A stretch of DNA of 63,947 bases, filler included. It is 5 parts of 5 records of this genome, joined end to end, with 100 filler letters (N's around TTAATTAATTAA, not from the genome) between each part and the next. Parts side by side here need not be neighbours in the genome. Positions count along the whole stretch, not along the records: positions 52,080 to 63,947 come from SRR31156797_10523; 4 more parts are not named here. One strand, written 5' to 3'. This document shows positions 1-63,613 of the stretch, piece after piece. Under the pieces are notes generated by a model. That model made no database searches, had not been told where the DNA came from, and was given only the letters and a program-made list of their open reading frames with translations. Each line of letters opens with the position of its first letter. The stretch's first letter is position 1. The position numbers and the translations under genes were made by a program.

Positions 1-163
1 GTGAGCTCTTACCTCACCTTTTCACCCTTATCTAACAAAGTTAGACGGTTATTTTCTGTTACATTACTGTATCCTTTCAGATACCTTCCCGTTAGGAAGC
101 ATGATGCCCTGCATTGCCCGGACTTTCCTCCTCTATAAATAGCGGCGATAGACTGACTTGCTA
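1..163 (-). ncRNA. rnpB: RNase P RNA (bacterial class A), 5' half; runs off the window edge
   Basis: Minus strand reads GAGGAAAGTCCGGGC ... GTAACAGAAAATAACCG ... AGGGTGAAAAGGTGAGGTAAGAGCTCAC, the conserved P4/L11-12/P13-14 region of class A RNase P RNA. Confidence 0.95.
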
Positions 164-168
164 TGTCA

Positions 169-47886: not shown

Positions 47887-47912
47887 ATAAGGGGAAATCC
47901 CCCTTATCTTTT
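47885..47912. terminator. Intrinsic terminator between convergent Sel1 and EamA genes
   Basis: AGATAAGGGG / CCCCTTATCT stem followed by Ts. Confidence 0.8.
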
Positions 47913-47920
47913 ATTGTGTT

Positions 47921-48805
47921 TTAATTTTCTAATGATTTTACCTCTTTTTTATTTATAAGATTCATAGCAACTAAAACTGTTAATATCCCAATTAAAACAT
48001 TAAACTCAATACCTTTGCCTAAGATAAAATATCCAATCAAAGCAGATGCAACTGGTAACAAATAAAATAAAGAGGAAACTTTTGAAACCTCCCCATGTCT
48101 AATCATATAATAAAGTAAAGACATAACTCCAATACTAGCCATAATAGACATATAACTTAAAGCTATTACAAATTCACTGTTAAAATCAAGTCTAATATCT
48201 TCTGTAAAAAGTAAAGGCAATACAATAATTGCAGATACAAAAGTTTGAATAACTCCACCAGTTACTAGATTCATATTTGAACAATATTTTTTTTGATATA
48301 AACTTCCAAAACTCATACTAAACAAACCTAAAAGGGCAAACAATACACCAACAAACTCTTTACTTGAGATTTGATTTTGCATACCTAAAACTAAAGCAAC
48401 TCCTAAAAATCCTAACAAAAGCCCAAACCAAGCTTTTGCACTAACTTTTTCATCTAAAAACTTCATAGCAAAAAATGAAACAATAATAGGTTGTAAAGAT
48501 ATTATCAAAGAACAAAAAGCTGGAGATAAACCATAATCAATAGAATTAAAACATCCTATAGAAAAAAGTCCAACTGATAATATTCCTGCAACACTTATAT
48601 GAAAAATCTCTTTTAAACTCTTTGGAAAACTAGATTTAAAAATGAAAGCGACCACTAAAAGAACAATAAAAGCAAATAGATATCTAAGCTCTTGAAAAGT
48701 CATACTACTTACATAAGTAAGCCCCATTTTTATAAATACAAACCCTGCACCTGATAGTGTAATAAAAGATAAGGGTACTATAAATGATTTGATATTTAAC
48801 ATCAT
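47921..48805 (-). CDS. EamA/DMT family transporter
   Basis: About 10 TM segments; two EamA repeats; GSLYQKKY, GEVSKVSSLFYLLP. Confidence 0.9.
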   Translation of the reverse strand: MMLNIKSFIVPLSFITLSGAGFVFIKMGLTYVSSMTFQELRYLFAFIVLLVVAFIFKSSFPKSLKEIFHISVAGILSVGLFSIGCFNSIDYGLSPAFCSLIISLQPIIVSFFAMKFLDEKVSAKAWFGLLLGFLGVALVLGMQNQISSKEFVGVLFALLGLFSMSFGSLYQKKYCSNMNLVTGGVIQTFVSAIIVLPLLFTEDIRLDFNSEFVIALSYMSIMASIGVMSLLYYMIRHGEVSKVSSLFYLLPVASALIGYFILGKGIEFNVLIGILTVLVAMNLINKKEVKSLEN

Positions 48806-48812
48806 TTTCCTC

Positions 48813-48865
48813 CTTGACTAGTTAGTCAAGTGGAAGTATAGCAAAAGCTTGACTAATTAGTTAAG
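48813..48865. promoter_or_regulatory. Two TetR-type operators flanking the EamA promoter
   Basis: CTTGACTAGTTAGTCAAG (48813-48830) and CTTGACTAATTAGTTAAG (48848-48865) palindromes around a TGn-TATACT -10 (48835-48843, minus strand); adjacent TetR gene. Confidence 0.8.
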
Positions 48866-48877
48866 ACTTTTGAAAAT

Positions 48878-49450
48878 CTATTTTTTGATTGAGTTTAGGA
48901 AAAATTCCAATTGAGAGAAACAGTCATAAAACACTTGACCATTTTGAGATTTTTTAGCTGTACCTAAGCACCCTTCTACTGATGCAACTATAAAGATTGC
49001 TAAAGCTCTTGTATCTTCATATTCTATCTCATTTGCTTTTTTTGCATTTTCTAAAGCTTTTTCAATAATTTGTTCAAAGTTTAAATACACATCTTCCAAT
49101 GCATTTTTAAAATCTTCATCTTTAGAAGAAAGCTCTTGAACAAAGTTATTGATTTTACAACCTATATTAAAATCAAACAAGTCTTGTTTTTTAAAAAGTT
49201 TTAAAATCTCTTCTATAATATTTGATTCATAATCTAATAAAACAGAATATCTTTCATTTGAGTACTTTTTTAGTCGCTCTTTTATAACTGCTAAAGTTAA
49301 CTCTTTTTTTGATTTAAAGAAGTGATACATACTTCCTTTGTTCATATTTGCTTTTTTTAAAATCTTATCTATTGATGTTGCATAATATCCATATTTATAA
49401 AACTCTTCATAAGCTACATCAAGTAGTTTTTCTCTTGTTTCATTCATCAT
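48878..49450 (-). CDS. TetR/AcrR-family regulator
   Basis: GYYATSIDKILKKANMNKGSMYHFFKSKKEL; GC motif in the C-domain. Confidence 0.93.
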   Translation of the reverse strand: MMNETREKLLDVAYEEFYKYGYYATSIDKILKKANMNKGSMYHFFKSKKELTLAVIKERLKKYSNERYSVLLDYESNIIEEILKLFKKQDLFDFNIGCKINNFVQELSSKDEDFKNALEDVYLNFEQIIEKALENAKKANEIEYEDTRALAIFIVASVEGCLGTAKKSQNGQVFYDCFSQLEFFLNSIKK

Positions 49451-49457
49451 CTATTCT

Positions 49458-50090
49458 TTATTTTGAAAAAGCAACTTTTAAACCAAGTAAAATTAATACA
49501 GAGCCAATTACTCTGTCAAACCATTTACCAAATGAGTTTAAAAATTCTCTTACTTTGTTTTGGCTCAAGATTAGAGATAAACATACAAACCAAACCATAG
49601 TTGCTAAGATACAAAATAGACCATAAAATGCTTGAATATATAAAGGTGTATCAATACTTATTACAACTGTAAACATTGATAAGAAAAATAAAGTTGCTTT
49701 TGGGTTTAAAGCATTACATAAAAATCCTACCCAAAACGATTTAAAATCACTCATATTTTTATCTGCTTTTAAAGCACTGTTATCAAGCTTAATCCCTTTT
49801 GATTTTAAACTTTGATACCCAATATAGATTAAATATGCTGCCCCTAGATATTTTATTATATTAAATAAAATTATTGATTTTGAGATAATAAGCCCTATTC
49901 CTAAAATTGAATAGATGATGTGTACAGAGATACCAAGTCCTATTCCAATACTAGAAAAAATAGATGAACGTTTTCCATAAGTGATACTTTGTTTTAGTAT
50001 CATAGCAAAATCAGGTCCAGGAGATAAAAGTGCCAAAAACATAGCCCCTGCTAAAATTAAAAATTCATGTAAATAAAGTGAACAATCCAT
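49458..50090 (-). CDS. LysE/RhtB family exporter
   Basis: SPGPDF, GAAYLIYIG, NALNPKATLFF. Confidence 0.93.
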   Translation of the reverse strand: MDCSLYLHEFLILAGAMFLALLSPGPDFAMILKQSITYGKRSSIFSSIGIGLGISVHIIYSILGIGLIISKSIILFNIIKYLGAAYLIYIGYQSLKSKGIKLDNSALKADKNMSDFKSFWVGFLCNALNPKATLFFLSMFTVVISIDTPLYIQAFYGLFCILATMVWFVCLSLILSQNKVREFLNSFGKWFDRVIGSVLILLGLKVAFSK

Positions 50091-50091
50091 A

Positions 50092-51078
50092 CTAATTCCT
50101 TTTTTGTCCAGGTTTTGGTTGGCTTACTTGTTTTTGCATCTCAATACTTAAGTTGTGATAGAAAAGCTCACCATAATCTGTTGTTCTGTTTATTGTTTCA
50201 TAGGCTTGTGCCAAAGTGTTATTGTATCTTACTGCATCTTCTAAAATTTTTATAATTTTGATTGATTCTAAAAAATTAATATGACTTGGAGCTTCAATTG
50301 GAGAGGAATAATACTTGTGCATTCTTTCAACCAAGTTTTTATTTCTAATCTCTATAAACACAGACTCAATTGGAGACTTAAAGAAAAGAATCTTTTGTTT
50401 TACATTAATTGAGATATATGTTGTTTCCATCCCATATATTTTCCTTGAAAAAGAATCAAATAAAAAAAGCTTTTTGTTGTAGTTGTTATTAAACAATTCA
50501 TATATCAACTCTAAGATTTTTATTTTTTCCTCTTTTGTATAAAAGTTACCAATCGAAGCAAAACAGAAAGTTAATACAGATTTTATAGAATACCACTCTG
50601 TTGTATCATAATCGTATTTCAACATTTGTTGAATTCTTGCTTGTTTTAACTCTTCAACACTGTTCATATCGTTTGATATTCTTGTTCTATAGATTCTTTT
50701 TACAGCAGTATCTCTATACATAGGTCCTGGAAACTGAGATTGGATTACAAACCTTCTATTTTTTTCAATCTCCATTATGTATCTTAATCTACCAAAATAA
50801 TCTTCATCTATGATTCTTACTTCTTTTTGAGGTATTTGAGTAATTGATTTTATAAACTCTTCCCCTGCACACCCCTCTTCCCAAATAAAATCAGGGTATC
50901 TAAAAATCTGACAGATTTTATTTTTCACATCATCATTTGGTTCTATATCAGAAATGTTGTCAATCCATGATGTTACAGTTCTTCTGTCTTTCTGGATTAA
51001 TGAAGCAAATTTAGATATACTTAAATTCGAACGCTTAAATATTTCAATAAACTTTTCTATTCCATTCTTATATGTCAT
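50092..51078 (-). CDS. Hypothetical protein with N-terminal XRE-like HTH, divergent from prpB
   Basis: LSISKFASLIQKDRRTVTSWID helix-turn-helix pattern; rest unrecognised. Confidence 0.65.
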   Translation of the reverse strand: MTYKNGIEKFIEIFKRSNLSISKFASLIQKDRRTVTSWIDNISDIEPNDDVKNKICQIFRYPDFIWEEGCAGEEFIKSITQIPQKEVRIIDEDYFGRLRYIMEIEKNRRFVIQSQFPGPMYRDTAVKRIYRTRISNDMNSVEELKQARIQQMLKYDYDTTEWYSIKSVLTFCFASIGNFYTKEEKIKILELIYELFNNNYNKKLFLFDSFSRKIYGMETTYISINVKQKILFFKSPIESVFIEIRNKNLVERMHKYYSSPIEAPSHINFLESIKIIKILEDAVRYNNTLAQAYETINRTTDYGELFYHNLSIEMQKQVSQPKPGQKRN

Positions 51079-51250
51079 CTTAATTTCCTATGTAAAATTT
51101 ATGTATTGTACCAAAAATATACATAAGAACAAATATTGTACAAAATAAATCAAAAATTAAAAAAGTTGTAATTTTTTAGAAGAAACTATACAACACATAA
51201 ATTATAAACAAGAGTATAATCTAAACCTAGATAATTTTAGAAGGATTTAT

Positions 51251-51979
51251 ATGAGCGCAGGAAAAAGATTTAGAGAAGCACTAAAAGAAGAATCTCCACT
51301 ACAAATCGTGGGAACAATCAATGCTTATCAAGCACTTCAAGCTACAAAAGTAGGACATAAAGCAATTTACCTTTCAGGTGGAGGTATTGCAAATGCTTCA
51401 TACGGTTTACCTGATTTAGGTATGACTATGATTGAAGATGTATGTATTGATATTAGAAGAGTTACTTCTATTTGTGATACTCCATTAATCGTTGATGCAG
51501 ATACAGGTTGGGGACATGCATTCAATGTGGCTAGAACTGTAAAAGAATTCATTAGATCTGGAGCGGCAGGACTACATATTGAAGATCAAGTTGCTGCAAA
51601 AAGATGTGGACACAGACCAAATAAAGAGTTAGTTTCTACTGAAGAGATGTGTGACAGAATCAGAGCTGCAGTTGATGCAAAAATGCAACTAGACCCTGAT
51701 TTTTATATCATTGCAAGAACAGACGCACATGCTAGTGAAGGACAAGAAGCTGCAGTTGCAAGAGCAAAAGCATATGTAGAAGCTGGAGCAGATGCAATTT
51801 TTGCGGAAGCTATTCATACTTTAAAAGAGTATAAAGAGTTTACTGAACAAATGACAGTACCTGTATTAGCAAATATTACTGAGTTTGGAGCAACTCCAAT
51901 GTTTACAACTGAAGAATTAGCATCAGTTGGAATTGAAATGGTACTTTATCCATTATCAGCATTTAGAGCAATGAACAAA
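51251..51979 (+). CDS. prpB: 2-methylisocitrate lyase, 3' truncated
   Basis: [41 protein letters not shown]. Confidence 0.95.
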
Positions 51980-52079
51980 NNNNNNNNNNNNNNNNNNNNN
52001 NNNNNNNNNNNNNNNNNNNNNNNTTAATTAATTAANNNNNNNNNNNNNNNNNNNNNNNNNNNNNNNNNNNNNNNNNNNN
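51980..52079. other. Artificial contig linker
   Basis: N / TTAATTAATTAA / N. Confidence 0.98.
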
Positions 52080-52553
52080 TATATTTGAAGTAACATAGTC
52101 TGTTCCACCAGTAAGCGTTATTGCTATTAGTCCTCTTGTTGTATCAATTGTTGTCCCTCCAGGATCATTTGAATATGTTTTGAATCTAACTGAAATACTG
52201 TTATCTACAGCTATCCCAGAGGATGTTGAAATCAAGTTAAAATCAGCAAATAAAGAAATATCCTGAGTCATAGTAATAGTTAGTGGATTAGTAGTACTCT
52301 CTTGATATAGATCACCTGCCCAATTAGCAAATTCGTAACCGTCTTCCGCCGTAGCAGTTAATGTAACAGTTTCATTTACATCATAAATTTCCTTACTGGT
52401 AGACGTAGTAACAGCTCCCTTATCTGTATGTACGCTACCAACTTTTAAAGTATAGCTTGTAGTATTCGTTGACGAAGTAGTTTCAGTTGTAGTGTCTTCA
52501 TCGCAACCAAATAATAACAAGCCAGTAAAACATAGTAATAAAATTTTTTTCAT
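52080..52553 (-). CDS. Surface lipoprotein with InlB B-repeat/Flg_new-like domain, 3' truncated
   Basis: Lipobox LFGC; VTLTATAEDGYEFANWAGD...NPLTITM...LFADF. Confidence 0.8.
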
Positions 52554-52896
52554 TCTTCCCTCTCCCTTTTAGTATTTTTTATATAAATTTTTTTGTTAAA
52601 AAAGATTCTCTAAAACGCATATAAGTTGCTTAAAGTCGTGTTTGAAGATATTTATTAATCGATTTGATATTAATTTAACATAATATTATAATATAAAAGA
52701 GAATTATTAAATTCTCTTAGTTAAAATTTTAAATAAATTATCTCCAGACGATTTAATTAAACAGGTATTTTATATAGTATAATTATACCAAAATCAGCTT
52801 AAAAGTGTAAGGAAATTTTTCGAAAAAATAAGCAAATATAGGCTTAGTGACAACTAATACAACTACAAAGCTTTAGTCATTAACATAATTTGCCAC

Positions 52897-52925
52897 TTGC
52901 TTTCATTTCCAACATATGTTAAAAT
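52897..52925 (+). promoter_or_regulatory. Sigma-70 promoter for the long leader of the XRE gene
   Basis: TTGCTT-17 bp-TAAAAT with extended TG; predicted +1 near 52932 coincides with the first helix of the structured RNA. Confidence 0.7.
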
Positions 52926-53097
52926 TTAACCAAGGGGAATTGTCACTTATGTTTTCATGAGTAAAGTCCTGATAAAATTGAATATAACTAATTGTATGAA
53001 GAAATAATAAATTTTCAGTTTCATGCTTCGAAAATTAACCATTGATTCATTGGTGAATTTTCTTGATTCAGCTAAAATTTATTTATTTCATTAAGTT

Positions 53098-53172
53098 AAA
53101 AAAAAACGGCCGAGGGATTGCAGTCCCCCGACCAAGTAGCCACACGGTACCGAGAATACCATGCGACGACTT
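53098..53172 (-). ncRNA. Counter-transcribed antisense small RNA (~75 nt, two hairpins + U-tail)
   Basis: Own promoter; hairpins GTCGCATGGTA/TACCGTGTGGC and GGTCGGGGGA-CTGCAA-TCCCTCGGCC followed by T9; G-U pairs are valid only on the minus strand. Confidence 0.75.
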
Positions 53173-53178
53173 AACACA

Positions 53179-53207
53179 ATTATAACACAACGAGGTTGTT
53201 TTGAAAA
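53179..53207 (-). promoter_or_regulatory. Promoter of the antisense RNA
   Basis: TTTTCA-17 bp-TATAAT with extended TG (TGTTATAAT) on the minus strand. Confidence 0.75.
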
Positions 53208-53417
53208 GTACAAAGCATTAGCTTTTCCTTAACTTTTGCAGAAGTTACGGGCTTTTTAGACATATTTTCAGTTGTGCATTTTCTGCTGTCATAGTTTCTT
53301 TTTGAAAGACTCAATGATGGTCATTTTAGTAATGCAAAATTTTGGGGATATTACCCTGTCTTTTTGTAATACCGGAATTTTGAGAGAATATTTTGTGTAT
53401 AAACAGTTGATGATATT

Positions 53418-53449
53418 GGTCAAGTACATTGTGTGCTTGGCCTTTTTTT
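53418..53449 (+). terminator. Conditional intrinsic terminator (attenuator) inside the leader
   Basis: GGTCAAGTACA-TTG-TGTGCTTGGCC 11-bp stem + T7, about 250 nt upstream of the XRE start codon. Confidence 0.8.
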
Positions 53450-53702
53450 AATATAATTTATTTTGATTTCATTAAGAGTTAAAAAGAAAATCAAAATAAA
53501 TTTGTAAGCAGGTTTCAAACGGAAGCCGTTTTGCTTTTTAAATGGCGAAAGTGCGAAACCGTGTGAAGAAGCAACCCTACTTAGAAGCTAATATTTATAC
53601 TTGCATATTTTCATCAACTTAATTGGTTAATTTATCAAGACGACAATTCCTCTGTTTTTACTATAACTAAGGAGTCTAAAAAAACATAGCGGGAGGATTA
53701 AT

Positions 53703-54020
53703 ATGTGTAATTTTACTGTAAGTGTAGAAAGAAGAAAAGTTTTGGGGAAACAATTGTTAAAAAAGAGAATGAAAGAGCAAATACCACTAAATATGCTGGC
53801 TAAGAAAGCGGGACTTGAGCCGAAATTTATCGAGGAGTTAGAGGCAGGAGGTATAGTGGAGATTAATCCTCTTATCCTAATGGAACTAGGTGAATTACTA
53901 GAGATAAATTATATCTATTTATATCAGATATTAGGTTATGTACATAATCGAGCATTGCTTAAGCATCTCATATGTGAGGACAATGTATATCCTCTCTCTG
54001 AAGATAGAGCTTGGGTATAA
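53703..54020 (+). CDS. XRE-family helix-turn-helix protein
   Basis: GGGAGG RBS; LGKQLLKKR...LNMLAKKAGLEPKFIEELEAG...INPLILMELGELLEINYIYLYQILGY. Confidence 0.85.
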   Translation: MCNFTVSVERRKVLGKQLLKKRMKEQIPLNMLAKKAGLEPKFIEELEAGGIVEINPLILMELGELLEINYIYLYQILGYVHNRALLKHLICEDNVYPLSEDRAWV

Positions 54021-54037
54021 TCAGGAATAGAAATTTT

Positions 54038-54079
54038 ATAGAAAATATTAAATTTTTTTTAATATTTTCTATTTTTTTT
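54038..54079 (+). terminator. Terminator after the XRE gene
   Basis: ATAGAAAATATTAAA / TTTAATATTTTCTAT perfect stem + T-run. Confidence 0.7.
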
Positions 54080-54263
54080 GAAATTAATAACTATTTCACA
54101 CTAAAAATCAATTGTAAAATAATAGTATTTAAATAGCAAAATGTCGTTAAAATAATTTTACTTTTTCACAATTCACCTTTCATATATTTGTATAATCTTT
54201 GCGATACAATACTTTTAAAAAACATTTTGATCTGTTTTAACACACGAGGCAGTTTTAGAGCTA

Positions 54264-54292
54264 TTGACAACTTTTACATTCAGTGGTATCAT
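54264..54292 (+). promoter_or_regulatory. Sigma-70 promoter upstream of the EIIB / substrate-binding genes
   Basis: TTGACA-17 bp-TATCAT with extended TG. Confidence 0.75.
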
Positions 54293-54569
54293 CTTATTAG
54301 TATAGAAGACTAGTCAATTAGTTCGACGTTTAAGTTGAGGCGAAAAAGAGTAAAATAAACATAAAATTATTTTATTACTACCAGCACAAAAATTTTTTCT
54401 GAAAATAGGAAACGATTCCAAAAACTTAAATAAAAACTAAAATTGGTGCTTATGCAGATTTCATAATTATGAATCTCCCATTAGAAATAATAATCTGTAT
54501 AAGTTGATATTATTATTTATTAAATTTTAAAAATTTTTAAATAAAGTTATTAGGGAGGATGATATTGAT

Positions 54570-54908
54570 ATGAAATATTTAAAAAAAATTACGGAATTTT
54601 TTTACAGAAAAAATGCAGTAGGCAAAAATGATCTGCCTGAAGAGAAAGTTAATGAACTTATAGAAGGATTAGGAGGAAAAGAAAACATATGCTTAGTTAG
54701 GAATTGTTTTATGATACTTCAATTTGCATTAAAAGATACAAATAAAATTAATGTTGTTAAACTTTGCTTAAGTGGAGCATCAGAAGCAAGAGTTCTATCA
54801 GATACACAAGTAGATATTATTTTTAATTCGGAAGTAAGTTTAATAGAAAGAAAGTTGAGAGAAGTTATTAGTAGTGGGGCAGAAAGATATTATTTAATTG
54901 GAAATTAA
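54570..54908 (+). CDS. Stand-alone PTS EIIB (glucose-class) domain protein, degenerate active-site loop
   Basis: LIEGLGGKENI..V.NCFMILQF...GAS...QVDIIF; GGGAGG RBS. Confidence 0.75.
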   Translation: MKYLKKITEFFYRKNAVGKNDLPEEKVNELIEGLGGKENICLVRNCFMILQFALKDTNKINVVKLCLSGASEARVLSDTQVDIIFNSEVSLIERKLREVISSGAERYYLIGN

Positions 54909-54944
54909 GAAATCAGTTTTTACTATGATTTGGAGGAGGTTATT

Positions 54945-55832
54945 ATGAAAAAGTTGACTTTGATAATTAGTCTATTTCTAATTACTATATCTACAACTTT
55001 TTCAATTGCTCGTATAAATTATATGATATCAGCATCTGAGAAAGCAAAGAAAAACGAATATTATCTGGATGTTTTAAAATTGGCATTAGATAAATCAAGA
55101 GATAAATATGGTGATTATGAGTTAATAGGTCACGGTGGAGACAGAGTTCAGAGTAGAGTAATTGAAGCGGTAAAAAGAGGTACTAAGGTTGATATTATGT
55201 GGACAATGACTTCTGCTAGCAGAGAGAGGGAATTATTGCCTATTAGGATACCATTGTTTAAAGGTTTATTAGGTTATAGGATATTCATTATTAGGAAAAA
55301 TGATAATGATAGATTTGATGAAATTGAGAGTTTTGATGAATTGAGGAAATTATCTGCCGGTCAGGGTCATGATTGGCCTGACACTGAGATATTGAGGTTA
55401 GCCGGTATGAATGTTGATACAGCACCTGAGTATAAATATATATTTAAGATGTTAACCGGTAAAAGATTTGATTATTTTCCAAGAGGTGTTAACGAACCCT
55501 GGAAAGAGATAGAAAATTTCGAAAAAGGAGAATTAGCAGTTGAAAAAACAATTTTACTGCAATATCCGGCACCAATATATTTTTTCGTAAATAAAAATAA
55601 GTCAGGACTTGCATCAAGAGTTACTTACGGACTCACTAAAGCAATAGAGGACGGAAGTTTTAATAGATTACTATTTACACATGAGCAAAACGTCAACATA
55701 TTTGAACAAGTCAACTTTTCTGAGCGGAAAATTTTTAAGATTGAAAACCCGCTTCTTTCGCAAGCAAGTAAAGAAGTATTAAAAAATGAAAATTACTGGT
55801 ACAAACCGGGAGAAGAGAAGAAATATAAATAG
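54945..55832 (+). CDS. Extracytoplasmic solute-binding protein (family-3-like), no partner permease visible
   Basis: Signal peptide; PIRIPLFKGLLGYRIFII, GQGHDWPDTEIL, RFDYFPRGVNE, LQYPAPIYFFV; GGAGG RBS before ATG 54945. Confidence 0.8.
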   Translation: MKKLTLIISLFLITISTTFSIARINYMISASEKAKKNEYYLDVLKLALDKSRDKYGDYELIGHGGDRVQSRVIEAVKRGTKVDIMWTMTSASRERELLPIRIPLFKGLLGYRIFIIRKNDNDRFDEIESFDELRKLSAGQGHDWPDTEILRLAGMNVDTAPEYKYIFKMLTGKRFDYFPRGVNEPWKEIENFEKGELAVEKTILLQYPAPIYFFVNKNKSGLASRVTYGLTKAIEDGSFNRLLFTHEQNVNIFEQVNFSERKIFKIENPLLSQASKEVLKNENYWYKPGEEKKYK

Positions 55833-56149
55833 CGTAAATTTATGCAAAAATTAATATTTTCTGAAATACAGTATACTAGATACGGAATCTATAGATTGTT
55901 GATTTTAAAAGTAAAAGTTTAATAGAACTAAAGTATTATTCTCTATAGTAAAGCAAAATAACCCTAAATCTTATTCGAGAGTATGATTCTAAACTCAGAT
56001 ATTTTGAGCTATAATTTTGATGTAAAATAAAAACGTGAAAGTTACATTAAATTAAGAAGAGAGTTTTTATGAAAAAATCAAAATTATTAATTTTTATGCT
56101 TGCATTAACAATATTATTAACTAAGATTATCCCAAAAGAAATTATATAT

Positions 56150-57235
56150 TTATAGTAAAATTATAAATATAATCAAAAGAATCCCGCTACCAATAAATAT
56201 ATTAAATAATATATTAACTAAAATTTCTTTAATAGATGTATTAGTTTGTTTCATATTATTATAAAAAGATGAGTCTTGCGGATATTTAAAATGAAAATCT
56301 TTTGTCTTAATTAATTTGTAATCAAATAAGAAATTATTCTTTTGTTTTCCATCGATTACTTTTGGAATTTTTAGATTTTTAGTTATTTTTTCTATATTTT
56401 CAAATAATTTTTCTCCCATCTTTTCTCCGCAGTAGAGATTTCCGCCGAATGCTCCGGTATCGATATAAAAGCTCCAATTGACATATATAGGGTTCATTGT
56501 TACCTTGCTTAATTCAGGAAGAACGGCATCATAGGAAAAAACTTTGTTTGTATTATCTCTAAAAAAAACATAATACATTATTATTTCATTTTTCTTTAGA
56601 GAAGCAACTTTTTTTACTAATTCTGAAAATTCATAATCATCAAGCCATTCGATTTCCAAATCATAATCTGATTTTTCAAGAATAGAGTTAATATTCTTTT
56701 TAATATTTTGCCCGGTGATACTTATATCTGTAATCAAATATAGCTTTCTTGCATTAGGATTTTGATCTATTGCTAGAGCTAAATTAGCCCTATAATCAGG
56801 TTCCTCCAGCATTAAATAATGATTGTCATGTGTAAAATAATAACTCTCCTCGAGACTATTAATTCCTGCTGATATTATTGGTATGTCTTTAAAGAAGTCA
56901 TACTTTTTTTTGACGATATATTTATGTGCAAAATCATCAATTGGAACAATTAAATCAAGATCGTAGCTCTGATATTTTTTAGTAAATTGAATATCATACT
57001 TTTCGAGAGATAGTTCATCGTTATATTTTTTAGCATCCATATATTCAACAAAAAACTTATAATTACTATTTTCCGGCTTGATAGATTTGTTAATTCCTTT
57101 TTGAATTTGTTTTGTCCATAAATAATCCTCTGAATATGAGTGAAGAATTAAAATGTTTTTTTTAATTTTATATTCTTTGGATTGAATAAATACAAATATT
57201 AAAATATAAGTGAAAAGTAATACGGATTTTCTCAT
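56150..57235 (-). CDS. Membrane-anchored sensor (ABC substrate-binding-like) domain that stops right after TM2; probably a truncated kinase/cyclase
   Basis: ILILHSYS..YLW, EYMDAKK, PIISAGIN, GAFGG motifs of periplasmic sensor modules; no cytoplasmic output domain. Confidence 0.65.
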   Translation of the reverse strand: MRKSVLLFTYILIFVFIQSKEYKIKKNILILHSYSEDYLWTKQIQKGINKSIKPENSNYKFFVEYMDAKKYNDELSLEKYDIQFTKKYQSYDLDLIVPIDDFAHKYIVKKKYDFFKDIPIISAGINSLEESYYFTHDNHYLMLEEPDYRANLALAIDQNPNARKLYLITDISITGQNIKKNINSILEKSDYDLEIEWLDDYEFSELVKKVASLKKNEIIMYYVFFRDNTNKVFSYDAVLPELSKVTMNPIYVNWSFYIDTGAFGGNLYCGEKMGEKLFENIEKITKNLKIPKVIDGKQKNNFLFDYKLIKTKDFHFKYPQDSSFYNNMKQTNTSIKEILVNILFNIFIGSGILLIIFIILL

Positions 57236-57292
57236 TTAATTCTCCTAATAATTATTTATTAAACTTGTGATAATGAATCGATTCCGAATTTG

Positions 57293-57323
57293 AAAAGAGA
57301 AGCGGATGAAATATATCCGCTTC
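57293..57323 (-). terminator. Intrinsic terminator after the 57357 remnant
   Basis: GAAGCGGAT-N7-ATCCGCTTC followed by TCTTTT on the minus strand. Confidence 0.6.
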
Positions 57324-57356
57324 ATTTATGAACATAGAATTTTTTAAATAAATTAC

Positions 57357-57651
57357 TTAATATGTAAAATTTGCATTTTCAATTATTTGATTTGGAATTT
57401 CTAAACCTAACTTACCTGCAACTGTTTGTTTTATAGAAATATAGTTATCGTCTAAAAATCTAACTGGCATATTTACGGGATTTTTATTTTCATAAACAAC
57501 TTCCTTTACCATATCCAGTAATATTTTTAGCTACAAGTAAGGCATCAGAAGTTACTGATATTATTAGATTATAGCCCTTTGAGTCTATTTCTCTCATAAC
57601 TTTTATTGCAGTTGAATCATTTTCTTTTCCCGAAAATTGCTCAACAAACAT
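57357..57651 (-). pseudogene. Internally deleted, frameshifted ABC_sub_bind-type substrate-binding protein remnant
   Basis: One frame gives ...SGKENDSTAIKVMREIDSKGYNLIISVTSDALLVAKN (N-terminal lobe); it shifts to ...KNPVNMPVRF...ISIKQTVAGKLGLEIPNQIIENANFTY* (family C-terminus). Confidence 0.6.
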
Positions 57652-58114
57652 GTTTTTATGTTAATCACGATAAATTAACTAAAGTTATAATAAATATATA
57701 GTCAACTATACAATTTCTACAAGAAAAATATATCATTTATCTCCATGGAAGTCAATTTAAATTTTTACTTCTTCAAAAAAACTGTTCTTTTTTTCATTTT
57801 ATTTGTTTTGTTTTAGGAGGCGAATATGATGAAATGTCATTGTGAAGAGATGATAATATTCTTCTTAACTTACTTATTGGCATTTCTATGAAAAAATAGC
57901 AGTTACTTATTTTTAATCACGGTCATAACAATTTCTATTTAATAATTTTTGGGACGATCATCCACCAAAAGAACAAAAGGTGTTTTTATAGAACGTATTT
58001 TTAAAATAAATAAGCTAGACAACTAGACAAAATAAATGAGAATGTGATATAATTGAGCTATATTAAGCAATGAAATTTATAGAGAACACAAAAAAATTGT
58101 GGGAGGAATTGGAA

Positions 58115-60298
58115 ATGTTTAAATCACTATCTGGAAAAATTATAAGTGTGATGTTGCTGATAACATTAGTAATTAACAGTGTTATTATTTTTAGTGTTAT
58201 CAAGATTAATCGTAGAGAAATTTTAGCTAAGCAAATGGAAATGAATAAAAATGAAGTTAATAAAACTTTGGCTTCTATTCAAAGTATGCAAGATAATTTA
58301 ATTCAAATGAAAGAAGAGAAACAAACAGTAGTTAAGAAAAGGTTAAAAGAACACGTCGAAAATGGAATAAGTGTTTTACAATTTTATTATGATAAATATC
58401 AGAATGGTGAAATGAGTGAGGCTGACGCAAGAGAGGAAGCTAAAAAAGCTGTTAGAGGTCTTAGATATGGTAATGGAGGCTATTTCTGGATGGATAACAA
58501 AGATTATATATTGGAAGTGCTTCCGCCAGCTCCGCAAAAAGAAGGTATGTACAGAGCAGATATTAAAGATGTAAACGGTACAAGACTTGTAAAAGAGTTA
58601 GTTGATGGAGCTATGAAAAATGGTGCTACGTATGTAACGTATTGGTTCCCTAAAATGGGCGAAACAGAACCTTCTCCTAAATTAGGAAGAGCTCAATATT
58701 TTGAAGCATGGGGATGGATTATTGGTACAGGCGAGTATATTGATAATATAGATAAGGAAATAGCTGTTCTGGAGAAAAATCAAAATGAAATATTGAATAA
58801 TACAATATATGCAGATGCAGATGATGCGGCGTATAATTTGATTTTAGATCAAGATGGTATGGTTGTTGCTCACCCGGATCAAAGTTTAATAGGAACTAAA
58901 TATAACTTAGTTGATGTTAAGACTGATGAAGATTTAGTAGCTAAATACTATGAACAAAACGATGGTATCGCGGAGTATTACTTTCCGAGAAAAGGAGAAG
59001 GAGCCCATAAGAAGATAGGTTATGCTAAGGTTGATAAAAGAACAAATTGGCTTGTTATGTTTATGGCCTATGAGGATGATTTATTAAAAACAGTAAAGAA
59101 AACGACGAGATTGATTTTAATTATTTCATTGATTAGTTTAATAGTTTCTGGGGTAATAATTAAAATTGTAGTTAATCTAATGCTTGGAAGGGTGTCAGAT
59201 ATTACTACAAGGATTAATCAACTTGCTGATGGTGATTTCTCTAAGAGATTAGATATAAAAGGTAAAGATGAGCTTGGAGTGATAGCTTCATCGCTTAATA
59301 ATAAAACGGAAAAAGTAAATAATATTATTTCTAAAGTTGTCTCTGTAACTGATGAAGTTGTTGATAATAACAGCTTACTAGCTATGACAATGGAAAATAT
59401 TGTAAAAGGAAAAGATTCTGGAATAAATATAAATAGTTCGAGTTATTTAGATGATGGAATTTATCAATTGAAAGATTTCATGAGAGATGTAATGGATAGT
59501 GTCAGAAATCAAACTGCTAGTTCTGAAGAGTTTTTAGCAGGTCTTGAAGAGATATCTGCTACAGCGAGAACAATTGGTAAAACGACAAATGAAGCTCTTG
59601 GAGATTCAAAGGAGTCAGTTGAAAATGCAGGTGTTGGAATTAATAATATTGGAAGAATGGAGCAAAGTATATCGACTATTAACACAAGTGTTGATAATGC
59701 AAATACTAAAATTGATAATTTGGGAGCCTTGTCACAAAATATTGGTGATATATTAGAAGCCATAAATGGACTATCAGACCAGACTAATCTATTAGCACTA
59801 AATGCTGCGATAGAGGCAGCAAGAGCAGGCGAAGCAGGAAGAGGTTTTGCTGTAGTTGCAGAGGAGATCAGAAAATTAGCAGAGAGAACAAATGACGAAA
59901 CTGGGAAGATAGAAAAAGTGATAGTGGAGATACAGAATGAAGTTGGTAGAGTAAAATATGCCAATGAGGAAGTTACGAAAAATGTTGATGAAGGCCTAAA
60001 AGTTACAGAAGAGCTAAAAACTTCGATGGATTTAGTAGTTGAGTCAATAAGAAGAAGTGATGAGAATATCAAAGAAATATCGGAATCGATAAGAGAGCAA
60101 ATAATAGCCTCTGATGAGATTACTGTAGCTGTATCGGCAATTGCTGATAGCTCAACAACGATTGAGGAGAAAACAACTTCAACTTATGACACTATAGAGA
60201 AAATATCTCAGATATTAGATGAGAAGTTAAGAGATGTAAGTGAAATATCAAATCAAGTAGAGCGCTTAAAAAAAGATGTCGGATTTTTTAAGCTATAG
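58115..60298 (+). CDS. Methyl-accepting chemotaxis protein with Cache domains and HAMP
   Basis: [10 protein letters not shown]...[14 protein letters not shown] Cache; [52 protein letters not shown] before 58115. Confidence 0.95.
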
Positions 60299-60331
60299 AA
60301 AATAATTCATAAAAAACTCTATATATATAAT

Positions 60332-60382
60332 AGAACCTGTAAACGGGACTCTAAAAAAGTCCATTAGTTTACAGGTTCTTTT
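60332..60382. terminator. Terminator between convergent MCP and NAD(P)H dehydrogenase genes
   Basis: AGAACCTGTAAAC / GTTTACAGGTTCT 13-bp stem + Ts. Confidence 0.75.
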
Positions 60383-60475
60383 GATTTTATAAGCTATATA
60401 GTTATTTTTCGAAGTGATCATAATTTCTAACTTACAGACATGAAAACTAGAAAAAAATCTTGTATGTATAAAATG

Positions 60476-61063
60476 CTATAATTCGTTTCCTGTATCCTGC
60501 ATCTCTTTTAGAATTCTAGCTAAAGCTACTTCCGGATTAAGTTCAGGGTCTAAGATGTGTTTAACATACTCTTCAGCAGATTGCTCTAAGGCTTCTCCCT
60601 CTAGTACTACAGCACTATGTTTTTTGAACGGTGCTAAATATTGCATTTGTGTCAAATTAGCAGTTTGCTGCATAGGTTTTAAAAATTCACTCATTGTAAA
60701 ATTATTATATCCTCCAGCTTGATATGATACTTCAGGTCCTCCAACTGATATTGCAGCTACATACTCCTTGCCTTTTAGTTTATCTCCATTAGGTCCAAAT
60801 GCCCAACCATACTCTAAGACTGTATCTTGCCATTTTCTCATTAGAGGCGGCATATTATACCAATACCAAGGGTATTGAAATACAATTCTATCATGTTGTA
60901 GTAATAGTTCTTGTTCTCTCTCTTTATTGATTTGTTCATCTGGATAATTTAGGTTCAAATTATTAATTGTAATTGACTCATGTTTTTCTAATTCCTCAAT
61001 CCACCTTTTGTTTACTTTTGAATCTTTATAATTAGGGTGAGCCGTAATTACTAATGTTCTCAT
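60476..61063 (-). CDS. Flavodoxin-fold NAD(P)H dehydrogenase (quinone), KefF/YwrO-like
   Basis: AHP..SKVN, EQELLLQHDRIVFQYPWYWY..P.LMRKWQD.V...GWAFG. Confidence 0.92.
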   Translation of the reverse strand: MRTLVITAHPNYKDSKVNKRWIEELEKHESITINNLNLNYPDEQINKEREQELLLQHDRIVFQYPWYWYNMPPLMRKWQDTVLEYGWAFGPNGDKLKGKEYVAAISVGGPEVSYQAGGYNNFTMSEFLKPMQQTANLTQMQYLAPFKKHSAVVLEGEALEQSAEEYVKHILDPELNPEVALARILKEMQDTGNEL

Positions 61064-61104
61064 ATATTTCCACTCCTTTTAATTTTGATATTTTCTCTAA
61101 AAAC

Positions 61105-61179
61105 ATTTGCATATGCAAATTATATCGTATTATTGATTTTTATTCTTGTAAATTATTGAGGAAAAGTTGTATATTATTG
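61105..61179 (-). promoter_or_regulatory. Activator-dependent promoter 1 of the redox cluster
   Basis: CAATAATTTACAAGAAT (61142-61158) ends 17 bp upstream of TATAAT (61119-61124); second half-site 21 bp further upstream; ATTTGCATATGCAAAT palindrome at 61105-61120. Confidence 0.7.
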
Positions 61180-61180
61180 A

Positions 61181-61591
61181 TTAAGATTCAGAAATTGTAT
61201 ATTTTTCAAGCTTTAATTTATTATCCTCATTTTCTTTACTTAGAATCCACTCAATATTTCCATTAACTTCGATTTTATTTCCTTTAGTTTCCCCTTTTTT
61301 TACAGAAGAACCTTCGAAATACATATTGATTTCAGCTTTATATCTATTATCACTGATTTTATCAATAGCTAAATCTTTTATAATATGTTTTCTATCAAGC
61401 AAACTCACAAGAATTTCTGCATACCATGTTTGATATTTTTCAAAACTATCCAGCACTAATGCTCCGTTTTTCATCTCAAACTGATCCCAGTTAATTAAAT
61501 CAACAAACTCATTAATAGAGTCATTAGCATCCATTTTACTGTAATAATTGTTGATGAAATTTATGATTTCATTTCTTTCATTATGATTCAT
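61181..61591 (-). CDS. SnoaL/NTF2-like protein
   Basis: Alpha+beta NTF2-like pattern; clearly homologous to the C-terminal domain of 62618..63613; AAGGAG RBS before 61591. Confidence 0.7.
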   Translation of the reverse strand: MNHNERNEIINFINNYYSKMDANDSINEFVDLINWDQFEMKNGALVLDSFEKYQTWYAEILVSLLDRKHIIKDLAIDKISDNRYKAEINMYFEGSSVKKGETKGNKIEVNGNIEWILSKENEDNKLKLEKYTISES

Positions 61592-61757
61592 ATCTACATC
61601 TCCTTTTAATTGTGTTTTCATGGCTATCCTTTCTTAAGCTTAAACTAGAAAAGTTGCGTGAACATTAGTCCTACGCAACCTTCTTATGAAAAATAATCTT
61701 TATGTTTAATTTTTTTTAAGCTACTGCTTAATATTTATATCAAATTCTTATAATTAT

Positions 61758-62123
61758 TTACATAGTTTCATTGAGCCACTTTTTAGCTTTTGATAAATCC
61801 GTAAAATATTTTTCATTAAATCCAGTGCTCATTTTTCCAGATGTTCTTCTAGAATGAAGTTTAGCAACTATTCCAATTGTTACAACTGCACTTTTTTCAA
61901 TTCTGTTTTTTGTAATTGATCTTAATTCGTCTAAAATTATGTCCGCTTCAGGCGTATGGATACTTACTTTTCGTTGATCAAATAAAACTTTGATTTTTCC
62001 ACTAAACTTATTTAATGAGTTGAGCACATCTTTTTTATATTCTTGTGCTGTGATTTCACTAAAAATTCCATTAATTGTTACAAATAATTCCTTTGACGAT
62101 AAATTTTCTTCAATATGATACAT
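61758..62123 (-). CDS. SpoIIAA/STAS-like small protein
   Basis: VLFDQR...KSAVV...KYFTDLSKAKKWL terminal motif of STAS/SEC14-like proteins. Confidence 0.65.
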   Translation of the reverse strand: MYHIEENLSSKELFVTINGIFSEITAQEYKKDVLNSLNKFSGKIKVLFDQRKVSIHTPEADIILDELRSITKNRIEKSAVVTIGIVAKLHSRRTSGKMSTGFNEKYFTDLSKAKKWLNETM

Positions 62124-62212
62124 ATTTTTCTCCTTTTCTATATGAGTGTTTTATCGTTATGTAATAATTATGTTATAGTTTATAATTTTATAATAACGCC
62201 GAAGCTCTTTTT

Positions 62213-62500
62213 TTATAATGATTTAGTGTAGATATTCATTTCAGTTTCTTTTTCGATTAATTCAGCAAATTTAGGAGCTAATCTTGAGAAATGTTCTGAT
62301 TTTAAATGTGCGTTAAGATTTTCCTGCTTTTCCCACTCTTCAATCATTGTCAAAATATTTTGATTTTCAATATCTTGATGTAGTTCGTATTTAATGCAAC
62401 CCTCTTCTTTTCTTGTTTCTTCAATAAGTTCTTTGCATATTTCTAAAGTATCTTCGATTTTATCGTTTTTGATATAATTTTTCGCAATGACAGTAATCAT
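62213..62500 (-). CDS. Antibiotic-biosynthesis-monooxygenase (putative quinol monooxygenase) family protein
   Basis: TRKEEGCIKYELHQD...IEEWE...HLKSEHF. Confidence 0.9.
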   Translation of the reverse strand: MITVIAKNYIKNDKIEDTLEICKELIEETRKEEGCIKYELHQDIENQNILTMIEEWEKQENLNAHLKSEHFSRLAPKFAELIEKETEMNIYTKSL

Positions 62501-62548
62501 AACTCTATTCTCCTTTTAAAAGTTTATTTTTAAAAAATTATATATTCA

Positions 62549-62609
62549 ATTATATGATTTTTTAGATTTTTATTCTTGTACATTGTTGATAGGAAATTGT
62601 ATAAAATTG
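62549..62609 (-). promoter_or_regulatory. Activator-dependent promoter 2 of the redox cluster
   Basis: CAACAATGTACAAGAAT (62572-62588) ends 17 bp upstream of TATAAT (62549-62554); half-site repeat 21 bp upstream. Confidence 0.7.
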
Positions 62610-62617
62610 CTATTAAT

Positions 62618-63613
62618 TTATTTCATGAAGACTTCATATTTTTGAAGTCTAAAATCTTTAGTATTATCTTCTCTGGCAACAATCCAGTGTATATCACTTA
62701 CCGCTTTTATAGAATCCGGTTTTGCATCTCCTTTTTTCCATGTATTTGCTCTAAAATACATATCCATTATTACTTTATATCTGTTTTCATCGATTTTTTC
62801 TATTTGAATTCTTTCAATTATATGTTTTCTATTAAATACAGAATTAATAACCTCACTGTACCACTCTAAATATTTTTCATAAGTATCAACGAGAAAATTC
62901 CCGTTACTCATTTCAAAGTTTTCCCAGTCGATTAAATCATCAAATTCCTCTATGGGATCACTATTATCTAATTTTTCATAATAATCTAAAATCAATTTCA
63001 TAATATCTTTTTTATCAGCATCATTTCTAGTTACACTGCTATACAAAGAAAATTGCCACATTCTATTAGCCTTACCTAAATATTCTCCGATTTCATAATA
63101 TTCTCTGTCACCATGAGCATAAGCAATTGGATCGATTTTAGCCATATCCGGCATTCCATTTGCTTTTAAATAATCAGTATCAATTTTTACGTCTAGGATT
63201 TCTCCTATAAATAGAGTATGTAGCCCTAATTGATTATCATATTTTACTAATTTACACTCTAAAACTATAGGGAATTCAGCTACATATGGAGCATTAACCA
63301 ATTCACTTTTTATAGGATTAAGGTTAGTTGTTTCAAATTTATTCTCTTTTTTCCCTGAAATAGTACCTACATAATCCATCTCTATAATGTGCTTACGTGA
63401 CGGGATAGAGATAGTAAATGCACCTGTTTCTATGATGCTGTCATGACTATATGTTGCCTGCCTTAACGAAACAGATACCATGCTGGGTTTAGAGTTGACT
63501 ATTCCTGTCCATGATGCAACCATCATATTTGGCACTTCTTGTTTGTCGTATGTTCCAACTACAACTGATGGTAGTGGAAAAAGATATGTTTCTGATCCTA
63601 TTGATTTTTTCAT
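62618..63613 (-). CDS. Flavin reductase (flavoredoxin) fused to a C-terminal SnoaL-like domain
   Basis: FPLPSVVVGT...NMMVASW...GAFTISIP...APYVAEFPIVLECKL...HTLFIGEI, then a ~135-aa SnoaL-like tail. Confidence 0.88.
   Translation of the reverse strand: MKKSIGSETYLFPLPSVVVGTYDKQEVPNMMVASWTGIVNSKPSMVSVSLRQATYSHDSIIETGAFTISIPSRKHIIEMDYVGTISGKKENKFETTNLNPIKSELVNAPYVAEFPIVLECKLVKYDNQLGLHTLFIGEILDVKIDTDYLKANGMPDMAKIDPIAYAHGDREYYEIGEYLGKANRMWQFSLYSSVTRNDADKKDIMKLILDYYEKLDNSDPIEEFDDLIDWENFEMSNGNFLVDTYEKYLEWYSEVINSVFNRKHIIERIQIEKIDENRYKVIMDMYFRANTWKKGDAKPDSIKAVSDIHWIVAREDNTKDFRLQKYEVFMK

Follow-up and report, generated by a model that had tools for sequence, protein, structure and literature searches.

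A gene-free region of about 1150 bp in the window (the whole stretch of DNA that was analysed, 63,947 nucleotides with filler included) was found to contain a compact, self-contained and strand-specific small-RNA unit composed of a promoter, two hairpins and a terminator (Table 1). The region is flanked by a lipoprotein-like gene, which is the next gene downstream of the small RNA, and by a helix-turn-helix (HTH) ORF for which no homologue was found in 184 family genomes or in a collection of 5.8 billion proteins. All genes from 53703 to 55832 lie on the plus strand. No minus-strand protein gene lies upstream of the unit, and its terminator is therefore not that of a protein gene. A perfect 15-bp AT-rich inverted repeat, AATTTATTTTGATTT (53455–53502, arms 18 nt apart), was observed just past the strong plus-strand terminator and roughly 200 nt upstream of the orphan HTH gene, and a look-alike of about 30 nt of one of its arms and the spacer occurs at 53073–53105, immediately beyond the U9 tract of the small RNA. 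The repeat and its look-alike may be operator sites for the HTH protein.

On the far side of the lipoprotein-like gene lies a gene of the PEP-mutase/isocitrate-lyase family, whose 80 matching loci come nearly all from Arcobacter, Halarcobacter, Poseidonibacter and related Arcobacteraceae. Its product is unusually conserved, with 91–98% identity across many Arcobacteraceae genera, and it is 88–89% identical in two Gallibacterium (Pasteurellaceae) genomes (loci L062 and L063), a pattern suggestive of transfer between phyla. DNA similarity to the best Arcobacteraceae locus runs from about 47900 to 51979 and then ends. This synteny break with related genomes coincides exactly with runs of N at 51980–52023 and 52037–52079, taken as masked, that cover the 3' ends of the PEP-mutase-family and lipoprotein-like genes. 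None of the ten proteins encoded at 52080–63613 had a relative in the 6-kb downstream flanks of the 80 PEP-mutase loci. Among the neighbouring genes are those for an EamA transporter, a TetR regulator, a LysE exporter, a chemoreceptor, flavoproteins and a solute-binding-protein-like ORF. A further ORF of 361 aa (56150–57235, minus strand) was 38–41% identical, at full coverage, to only the N-terminal sensor part of HD-GYP phosphohydrolases of about 560 aa; without the catalytic domain it may be a truncated, split or stand-alone sensor. Profile searches of 10 nearby ORFs (Pfam, PADLOC, PHROGs and NCBIfam) revealed no rep, relaxase, integrase or phage function, which bears out an earlier note on this DNA that had seen no rep, integrase or phage gene nearby. 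No tRNA was found in the window, and a search of the flanks for direct or inverted repeats indicative of a mobile element returned AT-rich noise only. As read from its sequence, the window is Arcobacteraceae-like chromosome. At its start (1–164, minus strand) it holds the 5' half of rnpB, the bacterial class A RNase P RNA, cut by the window edge; the match scored 97.4 bits (E 1e-30) against a gathering score of 100 and is hence missing from the whole-window Rfam scan. A 3325-codon ORF at 3998–13975 on the minus strand presumably encodes a giant surface protein.

Table 1. Features at and around the small-RNA unit, with coordinates counted along the window.
Feature	Coordinates	Strand	Remarks
PEP-mutase/isocitrate-lyase-family gene	51251–52027	convergent with lipoprotein-like gene	81–98% protein identity to 80 loci
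Lipoprotein-like gene, InlB B-repeat domain	52553–52032	minus	flanks gene-free region
Extended -10 TGTTAAAAT	52917–52925	plus	motif prediction; points at small-RNA gene
Extended -10 TGATAAAAT	52970–52978	plus	motif prediction; points at small-RNA gene
31-codon ORF	53042–52947	minus	hydrophobic peptide with charged ends; 56 nt past small-RNA terminator; opposite plus-strand extended -10 boxes
Hairpin 2, intrinsic terminator	53133–53098	minus	stem-loop RNA nt 40–65, 10 pairs in fold, then G and U9
CUGCAA hexaloop of hairpin 2	53123–53118	minus	CTGCAA in DNA
Hairpin 1	53172–53134	minus	RNA nt 1–39; 4 + 13 pairs, 5 of them G-U; apical loop CUC
23-codon ORF	53161–53232	plus	weak Shine-Dalgarno GAGAA; small RNA covers GAGAA and ATG; small-RNA promoter inside ORF
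Small-RNA promoter	53207–53179	minus	TTTTCA-17-TATAAT with TG; 10 of 12 consensus matches (consensus scan)
-35-like TTTTCA	53207–53202	minus	part of small-RNA promoter
Extended -10 TGTTATAAT	53187–53179	minus	part of small-RNA promoter
Conserved block of about 35 nt	53176–53210	minus	essentially the promoter; recurs on other X1 and X2 contigs; both flanks diverge
Second hairpin	53227–53250	either	stem TAACTT/AAGTTA plus two G-C pairs; loop CUGCAA on minus, UUGCAG on plus
Weaker terminator-like site	53343–53358	plus	scan
Strong intrinsic terminator	53418–53449	plus	11 pairs (53418–53442) and T7
Helix-turn-helix ORF, 105 aa	53703–54020	plus	good Shine-Dalgarno; weak HTH signature

The 75 nt of the minus strand at 53172–53098 were predicted to fold into two adjacent hairpins at -38.3 kcal/mol (z -6.37), and only one of 200 shuffles was as stable. 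Both hairpins were predicted in the MFE and the centroid structure alike, and neither prediction gave evidence of an alternative (antiterminator) fold of the small RNA. The plus-strand reading of the same 75 nt reached only -16.9 kcal/mol (z -1.67; 13 of 200 shuffles as stable). Seven of the 27 pairs in the small-RNA fold are G-U pairs and these, together with the strong fold on the minus strand and the weak fold of its reverse complement, indicate that the structure belongs to a minus-strand transcript. In a terminator scan of the minus strand an 11-pair stem with a 6-nt loop was obtained at 53134–53107, followed by T9 at 53106–53098. The fold is nearly all paired; its accessible stretches measure 3 nt and 6 nt, and only the latter, the CUGCAA hexaloop, is sizeable. 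The unit has a G+C content of 61% compared to 32% for the window and is the only such island in its intergenic region; terminator-like sites were also enriched, at 5 in 1.4 kb against 0.5 ± 0.8 expected. Transcription probably starts near 53172, as judged by the spacing to the -10 element, and the predicted product is 72–75 nt long. A possible likeness of the terminator hairpin to the tail of a Campylobacter tracrRNA was set aside because the RNA lacks an anti-repeat and neither a cas gene nor an array appeared in the window ORF list or the repeat scans.

The -10 element of the small-RNA promoter, TGTTATAAT, is identical to the epsilonproteobacterial consensus TGxTATAAT given in the cited passages of PMC3656092, where this extended -10 is described as the main sigma-70 promoter element and a clear -35 as absent. 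Taken alone a perfect TGNTATAAT is not significant, since the window contains 11 against 8.4 ± 2.8 expected; the case for a small-RNA gene therefore relies on the combination of features and on conservation rather than on the extended -10 alone. The 17-nt spacer of the promoter contains a perfect 5+5 palindrome, ACAAC-CTC-GTTGT. The earlier note had proposed a minus-strand promoter followed by about 75 nt that form two hairpins and a T9 tail, stems whose G-U pairs would become A-C mismatches on the plus strand, and a CTGCAA loop complementary to TTGCAG at both 53118–53123 and 53236–53241, and each of these elements was recovered where that note had placed it, the second TTGCAG likewise within a hairpin loop.

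Relatives of the unit are known only from two public runs, X1, which contains the whole stretch and may be the source of this DNA, and X2, an estuary metatranscriptome. They were visible through the 30-letter loose ends of contigs. In X1 the summed contig depth over the bin 53172–53238 was 265.8 as opposed to a baseline of 37.6, and the promoter block was found with 2 differences (53176–53209) on one extra contig among those listed (record 4, 8683 nt). Three X2 contigs match the block and then become unlike the window, namely record 10 (53157–53203, 3 differences), record 11 (53174–53210, 1 difference) and record 12 (53176–53208, 3 differences). Record 9 of X2 matches the terminator (53092–53134, 4 differences) and a 155-nt contig spans 53191–53345 with 2 differences; a sixth record, at 54044–54078, looks like AT-rich chance. 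Record 10 keeps both lower-stem arms of hairpin 1 with the apical four pairs and the loop replaced, record 11 has the 5' arm of hairpin 1 with two changes and a different loop, and in record 12 the promoter block precedes an unrelated body. This suggests a small, clade-restricted family in which the promoter block is nearly invariant and the apex of hairpin 1 variable. The window itself holds no paralogue of the unit. The X2 contigs of the relatives are 151–248 nt long and cross the promoter and both flanks, which a 75-nt RNA alone could not yield; they carry no strand information and possibly include DNA, and are weakly consistent with longer transcripts that cross the locus. In the same run, where depth is low, strand is not given and DNA may be present, no near-identical contig was found over the small-RNA body; neither this nor the 155-nt contig bears on expression.

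Searches of curated and genomic collections did not return a homologue. The whole window gave no match to Rfam 15 at gathering score, and none of the six weak matches obtained for 52500–53750 at E values of up to 10 overlapped 53098–53207. Blastn of 52500–53750 gave no match to 72,556 plasmid records or to 50,697 phage records, and the intergenic region had no blastn match in the 80 Arcobacteraceae loci that carry the PEP-mutase neighbour. When a 126-nt unit was searched with BLAST in 5 + 184 Arcobacteraceae genomes only short promoter-like matches were obtained, and these were rejected as homologues, one being the rplJ promoter and one lying inside a gene. The 27/28-nt promoter block at up to 3 mismatches was found in none of 184 family genomes and none of 401 order genomes, and the entire 1149-nt intergenic region had AT-rich matches in 55 of the 184 genomes, none of them over the small RNA. 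A covariance model built from the single sequence reached a best E value of 0.19 in 151 genomes and within the window found only itself. Two scans of metagenome contigs with exact patterns gave 0 matches, and scans of viral contigs gave 0, 0 and 3 matches, the last being chance 17-mer matches without the RNA. A literature search aimed at characterised small RNAs in Arcobacteraceae returned no paper on any.

The earlier note's terms 'embedded' and 'counter-transcribed' imply a sense transcript, for which the support consists of predicted plus-strand promoters (52917, 52970) and terminators. The boxes TGTTAAAAT and TGATAAAAT are candidate starts of a convergent sense transcript, and no plus-strand terminator was found by the terminator scan between them and the unit. 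The strong plus-strand terminator has no protein gene upstream on its strand to serve, according to the ORF list, and is a candidate end of the same transcript. Further downstream on the plus strand nothing before 53703 is credible as coding. The 23-codon ORF at 53161–53232 is probably not a gene: it would encode a non-hydrophobic peptide, and neither visible homologue keeps the frame intact, X2 record 11 having a stop right after the ATG and record 10 a deletion of 2 nt. The 31-codon minus ORF may be a chance ORF of AT-rich DNA, in which short hydrophobic ORFs are to be expected. Shine-Dalgarno sequences are absent at this ORF and at a 45-codon ORF at 53314, and a Pfam and NCBIfam search of the small ORF tested gave no match. 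A 12-codon minus ORF, MLCTFQNNLVVL (53218–53180, Shine-Dalgarno AAGGA), was considered as a leader peptide and rejected because the ATG of X2 record 10 is in another frame, and a 40-codon ORF through the hairpins is likewise in another frame in the sole homologue with a visible upstream ATG. Since the three small ORFs across the promoter block are out of frame or broken in homologues, conservation of the block does not come from coding.

A second hairpin with the same loop lies upstream of the small-RNA promoter. Read on the plus strand, it precedes CTTTTT (53252–53257) and may act as a weak terminator; read on the minus strand, it has AAGGA within its 3' arm. Of the 19 plus-strand copies of the hexamer TTGCAG in the window, two are separated by 118 nt, at 53118 and at 53236; each falls within a hairpin loop when read as CUGCAA on the minus strand, and the hairpin around the latter has a stem of 6 bp. 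When the flanks were shuffled with dinucleotides preserved, 10 of 5000 shuffles produced a hairpin of 6 bp or more that shows this hexamer no further than 200 nt from the unit; by this post hoc test the second matching loop is unlikely to be due to chance. The hexamer includes the self-complementary TGCA, and hence a UGCA-containing loop results on either strand of the second hairpin. Folding of the plus strand gives a tetraloop, UGCA, not a hexaloop, and the complement of the small RNA folds weakly, so that loops on the sense side are poorly defined. Complementarity of the loop to the first target, at 53118, is uninformative because it would hold for any cis-antisense pair. The two CUGCAA loops on the same strand could alternatively represent a shared protein site or a self-kissing motif.

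The explanation that we tentatively prefer, with a confidence that stays somewhat below even, is that the unit produces an autonomous antisense RNA that acts on a convergent plus-strand transcript and makes first contact through its CUGCAA loop. A sigma-70 extended -10 promoter would start minus-strand transcription near 53172, and the RNA would form a 17-pair hairpin rich in G-U pairs, followed by a terminator hairpin with CUGCAA in its loop, and would end in U9. Its partner would be a convergent transcript that starts from the 52917 or 52970 box and ends at 53227–53250 or 53418–53449, is fully complementary to the small RNA and also carries the second UUGCAG loop. The two would first meet by kissing of CUGCAA with its own complement or with that second loop, after which the contact would spread to a long (75-bp) duplex and the sense RNA would be blocked or marked for RNase III, a mode of antisense regulation that would be independent of Hfq. 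Each copy in the family would be matched to its own cis partner, hence the differing apices of hairpin 1. What the analysis shows is the anatomy, the strand asymmetry, the recurring promoter block and the absence of a replicon; we infer transcription on either strand, the sense RNA, the kissing contact and the role of RNase III. For this phylum, PMC5416894 and PMC8687705 describe two-hairpin antisense RNAs that work through kissing loops and RNase III.

This antisense mode is favoured since two plus-strand extended -10 boxes point at the gene, no plus-strand terminator separates them from the unit, and the plus-strand terminators beyond it serve no protein gene. It is weakly favoured by the X2 contigs of relatives that span the promoter and both flanks. 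Loops that diverge beside a fixed promoter also argue for it, since such change is tolerated by cis-antisense pairs, in which the partner changes too. Against it stand the predicted nature of the plus-strand promoters, whose motifs are of a kind frequent in AT-rich DNA, and the lack of a credible ORF in the plus-strand partner. As far as the cited passages describe them, CJnc180 and CJnc190 of Campylobacter jejuni (PMC8687705; PMC3656092) are similar in being a chromosomal, Hfq-independent pair of overlapping non-coding RNAs in an epsilonproteobacterium, with a small mature sRNA and an antisense partner and RNase III that would be expected to matter here as well; they differ in that the partner here is only predicted, and the unit has no known trans target or processing and shows no sequence or Rfam similarity to them. 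RnaG/icsA of Shigella flexneri, as presented in PMC2879508, is a comparable case of cis-antisense outside replication control, with proposed kissing loops and premature termination of the sense RNA. Unlike the unit, RnaG is much longer, is encoded on a virulence plasmid and has a defined protein gene as its target. In terms of curated families, no Rfam 15 match at or near the gathering score was obtained for the unit.

The main rival, which we consider rather unlikely, is an RNA with targets elsewhere in the genome, be it a trans-acting small RNA, a protein-binding RNA or a decoy. The plus strand would then be irrelevant, and the promoter block would be an operator through which a shared regulator controls several small genes together. 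The unit does stand alone in its intergenic region, its promoter block with the palindrome is better conserved than the RNA body, and the spacer palindrome together with the copy whose body is unrelated (X2 record 12) favours a shared regulator over a shared RNA function. Identical CUGCAA hexaloops on the same strand also fit such an RNA, and Campylobacter sRNAs act in trans via loop sequences according to the cited part of PMC8687705. Against this role, the RNA exposes only 3 nt and 6 nt, and neither of the two visible homologues retains its hairpin-1 loop. When the loops and the whole RNA were scanned for duplexes against 43 start regions of the window, the best loop match was -15.8 kcal/mol (about 2.8 sd) and nothing was outstanding. 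As regards a shared operator, the palindrome has no other exact copy in the window and three one-mismatch matches, where 2.0 matches are expected. It is still less probable that the structure has no independent function and is a leader, attenuator or insulating terminator for minus-strand read-through to the lipoprotein gene, with a -10 that is fortuitous or a minor upstream promoter. That gene is indeed next downstream on the same strand, a perfect extended -10 is no rarer than chance in the window, and most terminators of this genome are similar GC-rich hairpins. Yet 545 nt separate the U9 tract from the lipoprotein start codon, with extended -10 boxes at 52790 and 52680 in between, and the -10 block is the best conserved part in relatives; the lack of an evident antiterminator fold speaks against a leader or attenuator, as the absence of an upstream minus-strand gene does against an insulator.

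The resemblance to type I toxin-antitoxin systems also had to be weighed. In the AapA/IsoA modules of H. pylori, as outlined in the cited passages of PMC5416894, the antisense RNA IsoA1 consists of two stem-loops and acts through kissing-loop contact and RNase III, its promoter is situated inside the coding sequence of aapA1, and six IsoA loci derive specificity from loop differences. The unit is of the same phylum and about the same length (~75–80 nt), is intergenic with two stem-loops, and has its own promoter inside a small opposite ORF whose ribosome-binding site it covers; the geometry of a two-stem-loop RNA over a 5' UTR and ribosome-binding site is formally present for the ORF at 53161–53232, and several copies with different loops are hinted at. 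An antitoxin RNA that masks the ribosome-binding site and start codon of this ORF, or in a variant is linked to the hydrophobic 31-aa minus ORF just downstream of the unit and opposite the plus-strand promoters, nevertheless appears improbable. No conserved membrane-active toxin of about 30 aa with a Shine-Dalgarno sequence was found; the 23-aa product with its weak Shine-Dalgarno, its lack of hydrophobicity and its frame broken in two homologues is not a credible one, the 31- and 45-codon ORFs lack a Shine-Dalgarno altogether, and the small ORF tested had no domain match. There is moreover no sequence similarity to AapA/IsoA, and the sense-strand complement here folds weakly. The earlier note had assigned the layout to the countertranscribed RNAs of pT181/pIP501-type replicons, a membership that was not sustained. 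Like the ctRNAs of pT181, pIP501 and pAMbeta1 and the kissing RNAs of R1 and ColE1, as treated in the cited part of PMC2879508, the unit would yield a small and strongly folded antisense RNA that has a promoter and an intrinsic terminator to itself, first contact by loops is plausible, and a sense hairpin with a U-run lies downstream of the target. The defining trait of pT181/pIP501 countertranscripts in that source is, however, control of the rep leader, and with no replicon or rep nearby the locus is excluded from that family. A replication-control RNA, for instance in the remnant of an integrated plasmid, agrees with the locus in layout only and is effectively refuted by the chromosomal context, with Arcobacteraceae synteny up to 51979 and metabolic, transport and signalling neighbours, by the profile searches of the 10 nearby ORFs and by the lack of plasmid and phage matches. 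Nor is attenuation evident: the plus-strand hairpin at 53227–53250 with CUUUUU could terminate, but no regulated ORF was identified and nothing credible is encoded on the plus strand before 53703.

The small RNA is thus probably an antisense regulator of the ordinary kind and not a plasmid copy-number RNA. A wider form of the preferred antisense reading, which we regard as doubtful, holds that the locus is one member of a family of autonomous antisense cassettes, restricted to a clade and not described before, in marine or estuarine Arcobacteraceae. A 'portable' promoter/operator of about 35 nt would in these cassettes drive hairpin RNAs of about 75 nt with diverged loops, each of which kisses its own convergent non-coding partner. 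Such cassettes would correspond to plasmid ctRNAs and AapA/IsoA modules but be chromosomal and lack a toxin, and perhaps one regulator that binds the ACAAC-N3-GTTGT palindrome controls them all.

To our knowledge Arcobacteraceae are a lineage without Hfq. The locus appears to be an orphan bacterial sRNA candidate of a familiar kind, with hints of a family that shares a portable promoter block. As a well-defined and strongly predicted sRNA gene it provides a concrete entry point to RNA regulation in Arcobacteraceae. If the promoter block truly drives hairpin RNAs with different loops, the family would be a compact natural system for the study of loop-set specificity in kissing-loop antisense control outside plasmids and toxin-antitoxin systems.
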